From Nitrosopumilaceae archaeon (GTDB taxonomy: Archaea; Thermoproteota; Nitrososphaeria; Nitrososphaerales; Nitrosopumilaceae), in the NCBI GenBank assembly GCA_965214835.1, contig CBDCCK010000002.1:256001-320000 (forward strand): 64,000 nucleotides of DNA, written 5' to 3'. The notes under the pieces were generated by a model. The model did no database searches. It had not been told where the DNA came from and saw nothing but the letters and a program-made list of their open reading frames with translations. This document shows positions 11,837 to 61,994 of the stretch, piece by piece; the first letter of the stretch is position 1, and every line of letters starts with the position of its first letter. Both the position numbers and the translations under genes were made by a program.

Positions 11837-11926
11837 GCAAGAGTTTACCCCTCCCCCCGGGATACGGCGTGGCAGGCGTGATCATGAAGGCTCCGGCCAG
11901 CAGTGTCGCCTAGGGGGTAAACTCAC
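11837..11926 (+). repeat. ~90-bp MITE-like repeat, family A, copy 3
   Basis: GCAAGAGTTTACCCC / GGGGGTAAACTCAC. Confidence 0.9.
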
Positions 11927-37905: not shown

Positions 37906-38724
37906 TTGATCCCAGATACTAGATCCAGGATTGCACGGTGGTTGGAAATCGTGGAGAGTCCCGGCCTGAGCCTTGCCGAAAAGAGCCTGAACCTGGCAAG
38001 AATCGTAGAGTATCCGGATCTTGACATAAAAAAATACACGGACAGGATTGGGGAGATCGGAGCATCGCTGCGCGAGGCTGCCGGCGGCGTAAAAAACCCC
38101 ACATATCTCATCTCCGTGCTAAACGAGCACCTCTTTGACAACTTTGGCATGACGGGGGACGAGGACGACTATTATGATCCAAAAAATAACTTTGTAAACG
38201 AGGTAATTGACAAAAAGTCCGGACTGCCGATTACCATCTCGGTGATCTACGTCGAGGTGGCAAGGCACGTGGGACTGGATCTGCAGATCGTCGGGTTCCC
38301 AAGCCACGTCCTTGTAAAGTACGGGGAGGAGCTGATAATCGATCCGTTCTACGGCGGCAGGGTGCTTGGAGTCGAGGAGCTGCAGCAGATTTTGGATCTG
38401 AACTTCGGCGGGGAGGTAGAGTTTGCACCAGAGTTCTTGGATGCGATCTCAGGTGAGAGGACGCTGGCCAGGATAGCCAGAAACCTGAAAAACTCCTACA
38501 TGCAATCGTATGCGTTTGAGAAGGCAGAGCTGTGCGCGGATCTTGTGACGGCCATGGAGCAGGACGTCCCCGAGGACGTAAGAGACAGGGGGATCATCGA
38601 GGAGGGGCTCTCAAGGTTCGAGCCTGCACTGGCGCACCTCAATCGGTACCTAGAGATGAACCCGAATGCACGGGACGCAGACTATGTCTTGGATTTGATC
38701 AGAAATATTAGAGCAAGGGTCTAG
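37906..38724 (+). CDS. SirB1/transglutaminase-like protein with TPR
   Basis: YYDPKNNF, GLPITIS, GFPSHVL, IDPFYGG, RDRG. Confidence 0.85.
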   Translation: MIPDTRSRIARWLEIVESPGLSLAEKSLNLARIVEYPDLDIKKYTDRIGEIGASLREAAGGVKNPTYLISVLNEHLFDNFGMTGDEDDYYDPKNNFVNEVIDKKSGLPITISVIYVEVARHVGLDLQIVGFPSHVLVKYGEELIIDPFYGGRVLGVEELQQILDLNFGGEVEFAPEFLDAISGERTLARIARNLKNSYMQSYAFEKAELCADLVTAMEQDVPEDVRDRGIIEEGLSRFEPALAHLNRYLEMNPNARDADYVLDLIRNIRARV

Positions 38725-55616: not shown

Positions 55617-55755
55617 GTAAGAGTTTACCCCTACCCAGAGATACGGCGTGGCAGGCGTGATCATGCAGGCTCCGACCAGCAGTGTCGCCTGAGGGGTAAA
55701 CTCCCATATCAAATTATGCTGATTCCCTGCATGGGCCACTGCGAGTGTGCGTTTC

Positions 55756-56853
55756 TCAGTCAGACGCATTCACTAGACATTCCATCATTTTATACTTTCT
55801 CTGCGTGAGCTCCTTGTTCTGCGTGCGGTATTCCGTTTCGTTAGTCAGCATGTACCAGATCACCTTTGCAAGCGTTCTGGCCACTGCTACCTTGGCCTTT
55901 TGCTTTCCCCTGCGTCGGGCTATTCTGTCGTACCTTTCACCCATCCTGCTGTCGTGCTGTACCGCTACCGTGGCCGCGTTGACAATGGCGTATCGAAGCC
56001 ATGCAGAACCCGTCCTGGTTATTGGTCCGCCCCGTATGGTCTCGCCGCTGTTGCGGTGTGACGGTACCAGGCCCGCGTATGCTGCAAGCTTTTCTGCGGT
56101 GGGAAACCTTCGTATGTCCACTATTTCGGATATTATGGCAAGTGCGGTAACGTGGCTTATTCCCGGAACCGTCATCATGAGCCTGGTCCTGGGATCGTCC
56201 CTGCAGATGGCGGCAATCTTGCGCTCAAATCCTGTCGCCTGCTGCTGCAGCATCTCAATCCTGTCCAGTCCCATGCCTATCATCGTCCTGTCCATCTCCG
56301 ACATGTCATGGTCCCCGCAGTCCCTGCAAAGCTCGTGCATCCACTGGATTCCCTGTACGGTGAACCTGCCCTTGGTGGGCGGTATTGCCGCGTATTTTGC
56401 AAGTATGGCAGTTATCTTGTTCTTCTCGCCGGTGCCCATTCGTACCGCGTCGATCCTGGCCCTTGAAAGGAAGCGCAGATCCCTGTAGTATCTGTCGGGC
56501 ACGAACGACTCGTACACCATGTCCATCCTGAGCAGATTTGCCAGTACCTCCGAGTCTACTTTATCATCCTTTAGCTTTGCCTGCGCTATTGCCCGGGTCT
56601 TGGCAGGATACGCCAGCTGCGTGTCTATCTTGTTGTCCTCAAGCATGTCATGCGGCAGGATCCAGTAGTTTCCCGTCGCCTCACAGACTGCACGGATCTT
56701 GTGTTTTGCGTATTTCTTTTTGATCTGCCCAATAAATCCCCTTATTCCGTCGGCCGTGTTGGAAAACTCCGTCTGTTCCAGGGTCTTGGCAGCCCGGCCC
56801 TTGATGGCTGCCACGCACGTCTTTTTATGAACGTCTATTCCTATGTTGATCAT
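55756..56853 (-). CDS. IS110-family DEDD recombinase/transposase
   Basis: IGIDVHK, CEATG, KDDKVDS (DEDD); YAGLVPSHRNSG catalytic Ser; GGAGGTGA SD precedes ATG at 56853. Confidence 0.95.
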   Translation of the reverse strand: MINIGIDVHKKTCVAAIKGRAAKTLEQTEFSNTADGIRGFIGQIKKKYAKHKIRAVCEATGNYWILPHDMLEDNKIDTQLAYPAKTRAIAQAKLKDDKVDSEVLANLLRMDMVYESFVPDRYYRDLRFLSRARIDAVRMGTGEKNKITAILAKYAAIPPTKGRFTVQGIQWMHELCRDCGDHDMSEMDRTMIGMGLDRIEMLQQQATGFERKIAAICRDDPRTRLMMTVPGISHVTALAIISEIVDIRRFPTAEKLAAYAGLVPSHRNSGETIRGGPITRTGSAWLRYAIVNAATVAVQHDSRMGERYDRIARRRGKQKAKVAVARTLAKVIWYMLTNETEYRTQNKELTQRKYKMMECLVNASD

Positions 56854-56889
56854 TATATCACCTCCCTGCTGATCAAAGTGTGTGTGCCC

Positions 56890-57025
56890 AACTGTGCGGA
56901 AAACTCCCATTCGCCCTCGATGTGGCATTTCGTTGTCCGCCTACTCTGAGCCAGTCTCTTACGCGCCCTCATACGTGGCAAGTTTACTTCGGCTCTTGGG
57001 CCCAACATGGAATATATGGCATCCG
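56890..57025 (-). ncRNA. bridge/seek RNA of the IS110 element (ends approximate)
   Basis: Two stem-internal loop-stem units (GAGCC/GGCTC and GCGGA/TCCGC, each with inner TGCC/GGCG) whose loops match the target and donor sequences. Confidence 0.85.
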
Positions 57026-57116
57026 CTACAGATAAGATTTGATATAACGTCTCTTACGGTGTCAGGGGAAGAATCAAAAATTCGTGACCAAGGCAAATAA
57101 AAAAAAGGTGTGAGCT

Positions 57117-57737
57117 TTATTGTGCCTGGGAGAGCCTGCTGTTGACCTCGTCCCAGTTGACCACATTCCACCAAGCAGATATGTAGTCCGGACGCTTGTT
57201 CTGATACTTTAGATAGTACGCGTGCTCCCAGACATCACATCCAAGCAGTGGAACCAGCCCCTCAGTCCTAGGACTGGTCTGGTTCGGCATTGTTCTGAAC
57301 TCTACCTTGGAGGCAGACGGATTGTAGACCAGCCATCCCCAGCCACTGCCCTGAATGACTGCAGTACTTGACGAGAACTTTTCCTTAAAGTCTGCAAAGC
57401 CTCCAAAGGATGCATTGATTGCGTCTGCAACCGCTCCCCCCGGCTCTCCGCCACCGTTTGGCTTCATGTTGTTCCAGAACAGCCTGTGGTTGTCGTATCC
57501 GCCGCCGTTGAAATTGACTGCCCCCCTTTGTGCCTCGGGGATCTGATTCAGATCAGATAGGATTTCGACAATGTCCTTGTTCTGGACATCCTCAGGACAG
57601 CTCTCCAAGGCCGCGTTTAGCTTGTTGGTGTATGTCTGATGATGCTTGGAGTGGTGAATCTCCATGGTGCGTGCGTCAAGATGCGGCTCTAGCGCATCGT
57701 AGGCATACGGCACCTCTGGAAGTGTGTATTTTCCCAT
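57117..57737 (-). CDS. sod: Fe/Mn superoxide dismutase
   Basis: IHHSKHH, NHRLFW, GSGWGWL, DVWEHAYY. Confidence 0.97.
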   Translation of the reverse strand: MGKYTLPEVPYAYDALEPHLDARTMEIHHSKHHQTYTNKLNAALESCPEDVQNKDIVEILSDLNQIPEAQRGAVNFNGGGYDNHRLFWNNMKPNGGGEPGGAVADAINASFGGFADFKEKFSSSTAVIQGSGWGWLVYNPSASKVEFRTMPNQTSPRTEGLVPLLGCDVWEHAYYLKYQNKRPDYISAWWNVVNWDEVNSRLSQAQ

Positions 57738-61906: not shown

Positions 61907-61994
61907 GCAAGAGCTTACCCTCCCCTGAGAACGGCGGGCAGGCGTGATCATGAAGGCTCTGGCCAGCAGTGTCACCTGAAGGGTAAGCTCTTAC
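61907..61994 (+). repeat. ~90-bp MITE-like repeat, family A, copy 7
   Basis: GCAAGAGCTTACCCT / AGGGTAAGCTCTTAC. Confidence 0.9.

Follow-up and report, generated by a model that had tools for sequence, protein, structure and literature searches.

The window, by which we mean the whole 64,000-nucleotide stretch of DNA analyzed here, from a marine, ammonia-oxidizing archaeon of the Nitrosopumilaceae, contains on its minus strand a mobile element that interrupts a ~91-bp MITE. The element consists of a non-coding left end of ~200 nt, one recombinase gene, and a short right end, and its features are as follows.

57051 to 57057, minus strand: left flank GTAAGAG, made up of the outermost 7 bp of the MITE inverted repeat; putative half-target for the 3' guide, core AG included
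55701 to 57050, minus strand: whole IS110-family element, 1350 bp, with one copy of the AG (=CT) core counted at the right end
57038 to 57045, minus strand: left subterminal inverted repeat ATATCAAA, element bases 6 to 13, the reverse complement of TTTGATAT
56854 to 57050, minus strand: left non-coding end, 197 nt
56858 to 56865, minus strand: Shine-Dalgarno-like GGAGGUGA, kept before the start codon in homologues
55756 to 56853, minus strand: recombinase gene, 365 amino acids, DEDD type, open frame intact
55701 to 55755, minus strand: right end past the stop codon, 55 nt
55706 to 55713, minus strand: right subterminal inverted repeat TTTGATAT, followed by GGGAG (55701 to 55705)
55617 to 55700, minus strand: rest of the interrupted ~91-bp MITE (TTTACCCC...GGGGTAAACTCTTAC), whose far inverted repeat contains an intact second copy of the target

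The boundaries at 55701 and 57050 are the positions at which homology among the copies in the genome begins and ends, with MITE sequence outside them. The recombinase matches PF01548 (DEDD_Tnp_IS110; 1.5e-25), PF02371 (Transposase_20; 8.7e-25), and the NCBIfam model NF033542, “IS110 family RNA-guided transposase” (243.9 bits; cut-off, 140). It can be aligned to the IS621 protein (8wt6; phmmer 4e-14, chiefly in the C-terminal domain) across the IEATG, DxxVD, and SG (NSGE) motifs, which according to the published description of IS621 contain the catalytic residues E60, D102, D105, and S241 (Hiraizumi et al., PMC11208158). The first Asp of the recombinase was read by eye in MINIGIDVHK, and the frame is preceded by the Shine-Dalgarno-like sequence GGAGGTGA.

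The ends of the element (ACGTT... and ...GGGAG) are without terminal inverted repeats and have only (G)AG in common with the flank. Subterminal inverted repeats of 8 bp, each 5 bp from its end, are present in the window element, and AACACATGG and CCATGTGTT are the corresponding repeats of a second subfamily. Consistently with the IS110 family, there is no target duplication beyond the core, the site is specific, and the orientation is fixed; site specificity is supported by the occurrence of the right end at the same position in three MITE copies. Across the family, AG was found at the left junction of 36 of 43 copies and at the right junction of 23 of 25. By these sequence characters, 55701 to 57050 belongs, as an intact insertion sequence, to the IS110 family as broadly defined by ISfinder, and the open 365-amino-acid frame and undamaged stems agree with the sequence-only reading (an earlier inspection of the same DNA that used no database searches), in which the recombinase was called intact.

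An Fe/Mn superoxide dismutase gene (57117 to 57737, minus strand; PF00081 and PF02777) is followed by a T-rich stretch, and the MITE and the element lie directly 3' of it. Candidate archaeal promoter sequences, picked out by eye, are the TATA-like TTATAT (element bases 4 to 9) and CTTATC (bases 15 to 20). In the second subfamily (L019, L036, L056, and relatives), the first ~35 nt could form a long hairpin, GCCATGTGTTGCCG-TTATA-CGGCGATCATGGC, which by eye includes the subterminal repeat.

The interrupted ~91-bp repeat has the inverted ends GTAAGAG|TTTACCCCT...AGGGGTAAACTCTTAC, and the opposite inverted repeat of this MITE, ~80 bp off, contains a second copy of the target. The genome contains 67 matches to this MITE/IS66 end. 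About 45 of them are of MITE-like length, and ~16 begin a ~1.65-kb element with a 534-amino-acid open reading frame that matches DDE_Tnp_IS66 (PF03050; 4.8e-29). As the repeat forms the ends both of this IS66-type element and of the MITEs, the target can be identified as the terminal inverted repeat shared by an IS66-family transposon and its MITE derivatives, and, judging from these matches, the natural target is GTAAGAG|TTTACCCC in the inverted repeats of the IS66-family element and the ~91-bp MITEs. Its uninterrupted form, GTAAACTCTTAC, occurs 45 times in the genome as a perfect 12-mer (22 and 23 times on the two strands), and the right end of the insertion sequence is found at the identical position in 3 of the 67 MITE/IS66-end matches. 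IS4321 and IS5075, bacterial members of the same family, insert into the terminal inverted repeats of Tn21-family transposons; they are alike in using the terminal inverted repeat of another transposon, although the target itself differs. The ends of the MITE family read GTA[A/C/T]GAGTTTACCCCT, and further MITEs are present in the window at ~11855 to 11924 (C2:267855-267924) and ~61919 to 61990 (C2:317919-317990).

Two similarly organized units, each readable as a stem, an internal loop, and a stem-loop, occupy the left non-coding end upstream of the gene. Their parts, named here according to the reading developed below, are the following.

57007 to 57026, minus strand: tentative 5' stem-loop GCGGA..TCC[A/G]T, seen by eye in copies
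56948 to 56995, minus strand: target-binding loop unit (loop 1), outer stem GAGCC/GGCTC, inner stem UGCC/GGCG
56981 to 56987, minus strand: 5' target guide GTAAACT, the reverse complement of the core plus right flank (AG|TTTAC), 7 of 7 bases
56954 to 56962, minus strand: 3' target guide GTAAG+AG in the sense of the left flank, then handshake AC (= element bases 1 and 2)
56896 to 56940, minus strand: donor-binding loop unit (loop 2), outer stem GCGGA/UCCGC, inner stem UGCC/GGCG
56931 to 56935, minus strand: 5' donor guide CAACG, a 4-of-5 match to the reverse complement of element bases 2 to 6 (TAACG)
56901 to 56910, minus strand: 3' donor guide ATGGG+AG (= right end of the element), then handshake UUU (= first three bases of the right flank)

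On the minus strand, unit 1 (56995 to 56948) reads GAGCC-GAAGTAAACT-TGCC-ACGTATGAG-GGCG-CGTAAGAGACT-GGCTC and unit 2 (56940 to 56896) reads GCGGA-CAACGAAA-TGCC-ACATCGAG-GGCG-AATGGGAGTTT-TCCGC. The left junction of the element is ...CGTAAGAG|ACGTTATATC..., and the right junction is ...GATATGGGAG|TTTACCCC.... From the two, the target on the strand opposite to the gene is reconstructed as GGGGTAAA-CT-CTTACG and the donor as ATAACGT-CT-CCCAT; in the sense of the element, the joined right and left ends that make up the donor read ...TTGATATGGGAG|ACGTTATATCAA.... The string CGTAAGAGAC at 56954 to 56963 is identical to the left junction at 57049 to 57058. It occurs three times in the window, where 0.05 occurrences are expected, and none of 100 shuffles reached three; the third occurrence (38577 to 38586) sits in unrelated coding sequence and was rejected as related. 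Likewise, ATGGGAGTTT at 56901 to 56910 is identical to the right junction at 55698 to 55707 (0.11 expected per window; 0 of 100 shuffles reached two). In the window copy, both 3' guides with their handshake bases thus match the two junctions at 10 of 10 positions. Every string and coordinate that the sequence-only reading had given between 56890 and 57058 is present in the window, including the two exact 10-mers, and its target and donor are correctly reconstructed from both junctions, the uninterrupted target being an existing sequence of this genome.

Of 401 genomes of the same family, 60 encode relatives of the recombinase (E <= 1e-20; G000, the genome of the window, counted). The only named relative is a “Nitrosopumilus sp.” MAG, and the Nitrosopumilaceae origin proposed in the sequence-only reading fits. 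From 61 loci, 45 units were parsed in one register, corresponding to 44 distinct copies, or 43 after removal of L022 from the unpublished genome G227. The register of loop 1 was outer stem (5 nt), 5' loop (10 nt), inner stem (4 nt), hairpin, inner stem (4 nt), N6+AG, 2 nt, U, and outer stem (5 nt), so that, AG being demanded in the 3' guide by the parser, a conserved core is built into that guide from the outset. After a spacer of ~7 nt, that of loop 2 was GCGGA, an 8-nt loop, inner stem, hairpin, inner stem, AAUGGGAG, 2 to 3 nt, and UCCGC. In 39 of the 43 copies, the left junction has the same position relative to loop 1, namely, -63.

The guides covary with the insertion sites. The 3' guides of loop 1 (32 distinct) agree with positions -7 to -3 of their own left flanks in 123 of 160 comparisons, against a permuted mean of 53.6 (sd, 6.2; maximum, 82), and none of 20,000 permutations scored as high, although this figure and the permutation figures that follow overstate independence because the copies are related. 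Position -8 of the left flank matches in only 8 of 33 cases and therefore falls outside the guide. For the 5' loop of loop 1 (18 distinct), the longest-run sum against the own right junction was 100 (permuted mean, 57.7; sd, 4.4; maximum, 83; 0 of 20,000), with the register of the 5' target guide moving by -1, 0, or +1 from one subfamily to another; CT forms the last two bases of the 5' loop in 28 of 43 copies, the rest being in a different register. Several copies mismatch their own flanks, and in 7 of 25 the longest run between 5' loop and right junction is 3 or 4. The first five bases of the 5' loop of loop 2 (13 distinct) match the reverse complement of element bases 2 to 6 at 47 of 65 positions versus 30.5 after permutation (0 of 20,000), with matched variants such as TGGCA/TGCCA, TAGTG/CACTA, and TAGCA/TGCTA. 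The observation that the left donor match of the window copy is only AACG was therefore right and reflects a trait of the whole family, in which this guide corresponds to element bases 2 to 6 and skips the core.

For the handshake bases, the family-wide picture differs between the loops. The two bases past the 3' guide of loop 1 score 54 against element bases 1 and 2, versus 43.4 after permutation (0 of 20,000), with AC/AC in 18 and AT/AT in 5 of 32 pairs, whereas those of loop 2 match right-flank bases 1 and 2 in 20 of 42 cases versus 15.3, a weak signal that 1,062 of 20,000 permutations equaled or exceeded. The handshake guides that had been read from the window alone are thus exact in both loops of that copy and stand across the family for the target loop, while the family lends them little in the donor loop. 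There is no doubt about the direction of the covariation result, which comes from many different guide/flank pairs, and the comparison of guides with insertion sites in other copies suggested by the sequence-only reading accordingly went in its favor, no permutation in 20,000 scoring as high.

Within the genome of the window (3.22 Mb, 2 contigs), a covariance model of both loops (R1), from which five sequences with a long hairpin insertion, L010, and L022 were left out, finds 13 copies. Besides the window copy, two are near full length (c964 and c1650) but have broken genes, and many left-end fragments are present. The loop-1 strands of c964 are GTAACCT and TGTATGAG versus GTAAACT and CGTAAGAG in the window, and its flanks, GTATGAG|..|GTTAC versus GTAAGAG|..|TTTAC, have changed in parallel with the guides. 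In several decayed fragments, guide and left flank disagree at one or two positions.

It is quite possible, although we rather doubt it, that the bridge RNA reading is right and the window copy is nevertheless a dead relic, its RNA or protein being non-functional and the flank match recording a past insertion. The window gene is the only intact one of its subfamily in the genome, where all other copies are broken or truncated; 45 perfect target sites are still present, and the right end occupies only 3 of the 67 MITE/IS66-end matches; and the left donor guide carries one mismatch. The joined right-left end string expected of a circle junction is absent from the assembly, and neither a circle junction nor an empty site was seen across 55300 to 57500 in contigs of four DNA runs from one study, in which repeat-induced breaks occur at 55703 and 57057. 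On the other hand, the 365-amino-acid frame is open and its catalytic motifs align, all stems are intact, the junction matches are exact, and c848, a left-end fragment elsewhere in the genome that is 98% identical to the window copy, suggests recent copying. With its intact gene and stems and exact junction matches, the window copy may plausibly be active today. Two contig joints that the same four runs show at the element were assigned to other genomic loci (a MITE beside an IS fragment, and the nested c1909). Three abutting IS110-family fragments of two subfamilies lie nested at G000:C2:1909038-1909941, where public contigs also have a joint that “goes back.”

On a single copy, the guide strings, which are direct or inverted repeats of the junctions, can also be read as DNA repeats, that is, as protein-binding copies of the ends or leftovers of insertions that act as DNA without any guide RNA. 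This reading was confronted with the structure of the left end in other copies. Alignment A2 (MAFFT, 34 sequences) leaves out five sequences with the long hairpin insertion, which were misplaced in alignment A1, as well as L010, the left end of which is disrupted, and L022. In its four helices, 92.9% of cells are paired, compared with 36 to 46% when the partners are slid, and both partners have changed in 9 of 20 pairs, such as UA/CG 22:12, CG/UA 22:10, GC/AU 23:11, and AU/GC 24:9. Of the 34 rows, 33 and 32 retain the closing U·G pairs; as these would become A·C on the other strand, they favor an RNA with the polarity of the gene. Three helices out of the four were also recovered by RNAalifold, independently. 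Because the outer stem of loop 2 is invariant, covariation speaks neither for nor against it. Against a DNA-only role thus stand stems whose pairing has been preserved by compensatory changes, U·G pairs that the other strand would not allow, guides that vary jointly with unrelated flanks in many lineages, and an RNA mechanism that is reported as experimentally demonstrated in this family for IS621, ISEc11, and ISEc21 (PMC11208160 and PMC11187229), so that we regard such a role as very improbable. Chance matching, or an artefact of insertion into an element-like repeat, could account for similar flanks among the copies of this genome, the target being a repeated element, but is refuted by the guide-versus-flank permutation tests (0 of 20,000 reach the scores), by the expectation of 0.05 and 0.11 for the 10-mers per window, and by the correspondingly different guides of elements with quite different flanks in other genomes, and its probability is negligible.

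Folding of single sequences did no better than shuffles, with z = +0.37 for all 206 nt of the left end and -1.66 and -1.18 for its two units taken separately, and the putative 5' stem-loop at 57007 to 57026 was absent from the single-sequence fold. Of the folding and covariance modeling that the sequence-only reading had proposed, the second part was successful, in that the helices covary and R1 finds copies, while the first was not. No family of Rfam (release 15) matches the region; a C/D-box match inside the gene (E = 1.5) was dismissed as chance. GC-rich apical hairpin insertions are present in the target loop of some copies, of 45 nt in L029, L030, L052 to L055, and L057 (G144 and G065) and of 21 to 33 nt in L028, L037, and L038. 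Guides and stems remain in register in these copies, and the tip of loop 1 therefore tolerates large insertions.

In our judgment, the left non-coding end of the window element is very probably a genuine bridge (seek) RNA of an IS110-family element. The sequence-only reading had claimed such an RNA with readable target, donor, and handshake guides, and the claim is now backed by covariation of guides and flanks in 43 copies and by compensatory changes in the stems.

The proposed bridge RNA would have as its core the two stem, internal-loop, stem-loop units, ~100 nt together. The 5' strand of the target loop, GUAAACU, would pair with the gene-sense strand of the right target half, at AG|TTTAC, and the 3' strand, GUAAGAG, with the opposite strand of the left half, both spanning the 2-nt core, which is CT as read opposite to the gene. 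In the donor loop, the 3' strand AUGGGAG would pair with the right end of the element and the core, and the 5' strand CAACG with element bases 2 to 6. The handshake bases AC and UUU match the other partner, as would be expected of bases that stabilize the exchanged strands. By analogy to IS621, a recombinase tetramer with its RNAs would join the right and left ends of the excised circle to the target at the core, presumably without duplication and in a fixed orientation. The sequences themselves show the anatomy of the element, the covariation of guides with DNA and of stem partners with each other, an intact gene, and the identity of the target; transcription of the left end, RNA-protein binding, the chemistry of the reaction, and present-day activity, as well as the reprogrammability proposed from the window alone, are only inferred.

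Much of this resembles IS621 of E. coli as published (PMC11208160 and PMC11208158). Both elements encode a DEDD/Ser recombinase with PF01548 and PF02371 domains and carry the RNA in the left end, upstream of the gene. Both RNAs have two internal loops with the target loop 5' of the donor loop (here in 43 copies parsed in one register); in each loop, the 5' strand pairs to the left of the core with one strand of the DNA and the 3' strand to its right with the other. A CT core is likewise shared, as are target-loop strands that both pair with the target and overlap on the core, and, in the window copy, handshake bases past the 3' guides that match the other partner; in IS621, these 2-nt handshake bases are described as pairing with positions 6 and 7 of the other DNA after strand exchange (PMC11208160 and PMC11208158).

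The two also differ. The loops are 48 and 45 nt long here, compared with nucleotides 34 to 98 and 110 to 177 (~65 and 68 nt) in IS621, and the guide lengths are 5+2 and 5+2 instead of 7+2 and 2+2. Target and donor guides of IS621 are both described as including the CT core (PMC11208160 and PMC11208158), whereas the left donor guide of our element skips the first element base and the core, and a conserved AAA faces the core. The transcription unit is inverted relative to the core, with CT on the strand opposite to the gene. According to the rule for IS621, the 5' loop strand shares its sense with the flank at the RNA-bearing end, where LT joins RD, RD being the left end (PMC11208160 and PMC11208158); here, with the IS621 polarity taken from that published description, it is the 3' strand and not the 5' strand that has the sense of the left flank. 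The IS621 layout ascribed to the RNA from the window alone fits exactly, but only with target and donor both taken from the strand opposite to the recombinase gene, whereas in the sense of the element the order is of the IS1111 type. The 8-bp subterminal inverted repeats of the window element are a further difference from IS621, and the recombinase is only distantly related (phmmer 4e-14).

A top-strand match that lies 5' of the bottom-strand match is described as typical of IS1111, the IS110 type having the opposite arrangement (Siddiquee et al. 2024, PMC11187229). Our element shares the IS1111 order with the IS1111-type seekRNAs of ISEc11, ISPa11, and ISKpn4, and it also has in common with that type subterminal inverted repeats (~7 to 17 bp as a rule; here, 8 bp) and site- and orientation-specific insertion without duplication (PMC11187229). 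Its long non-coding region lies upstream, unlike the downstream region reported for that type, for which an upstream location is described only as an exception, in ISMtsp17 (PMC11187229). ISEc21, of the IS110 type, is similar in its upstream non-coding region, in the intermediate length of its recombinase (358 amino acids, compared with 365), and in having another insertion sequence as target, namely, a conserved stretch of IS3-family transposase genes; it differs in the reversed order of top- and bottom-strand matches, and no subterminal repeats are reported for it in the description of that element (PMC11187229).

On this sequence comparison we do not place the element firmly in IS1111, the likeness being one of RNA polarity and subterminal repeats. 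Somewhat tentatively, we suggest that these RNAs may form a class confined, among the genomes searched, to Nitrosopumilaceae and characterized by polarity and subterminal repeats of the IS1111 type, an IS621-like double loop located upstream, a very compact core of ~100 nt, and a left donor guide placed off the core. Such a class, if real, could represent the IS110-IS1111 intermediate state postulated by Durrant et al., in which the RNA moved between element ends, and it would provide a small archaeal recombinase/RNA pair with naturally varied guides.

Among 151 genomes sampled across the phylum, R1 matches four, all of them in the family of the window (G000 and 3 of 19 others, versus 0 of 131 in other families). 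Archaeal IS110 recombinases are known, 662 being given by Vaysset et al.; bridge RNAs are described as predicted for most ISfinder entries (PMC11208160); and a 2026 preprint (10.64898/2026.10.21.760802) reports 32,190 predicted bridge RNAs and 86 models from bacterial and archaeal genomes. Our literature search returned no paper on a bridge RNA in Nitrosopumilaceae or Thaumarchaeota, although the supplements of Durrant 2024, of Siddiquee 2024, and of that preprint could list some. The RNA is a well-supported yet expected example of a mechanism that was described in bacteria in 2024 and has since been catalogued at large scale, and it leaves the general picture of how IS110-family RNA-guided systems work unchanged. 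It suggests that ammonia-oxidizing archaea use, or used until recently, RNA-guided recombination of the IS110 family, with one mobile element inserting into inverted repeats that belong to another (the IS66-family element with its MITEs), which spares host genes. The family further constitutes a natural reprogramming series, with dozens of guide/target pairs on one small scaffold, and the combination of a short two-loop RNA with a 365-amino-acid protein may interest engineers.

Two arrangements among the related copies concern the guides themselves. An identical pair of a related element with an internal deletion is found 45 kb apart at G000:C2:1917019-1917670 and C2:1962570-1963221. Its 5' target guide is that of the L044 elements of another genome, its 3' guide is that of c1909c, and its left flank fits an L044-type guide; the pair looks like a natural guide swap between elements, within a segmental duplication. 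At L013 (G061:C3:935796-939842), ~160 nt upstream of the recombinase gene, a truncated left end stops right after its own 3' target guide and handshake bases (ACCGGCAGAC), and a complete element begins exactly where the truncated one ends. Here the guide sequence of one copy seems to have served as the insertion site for another, with only the left half of the target matched.
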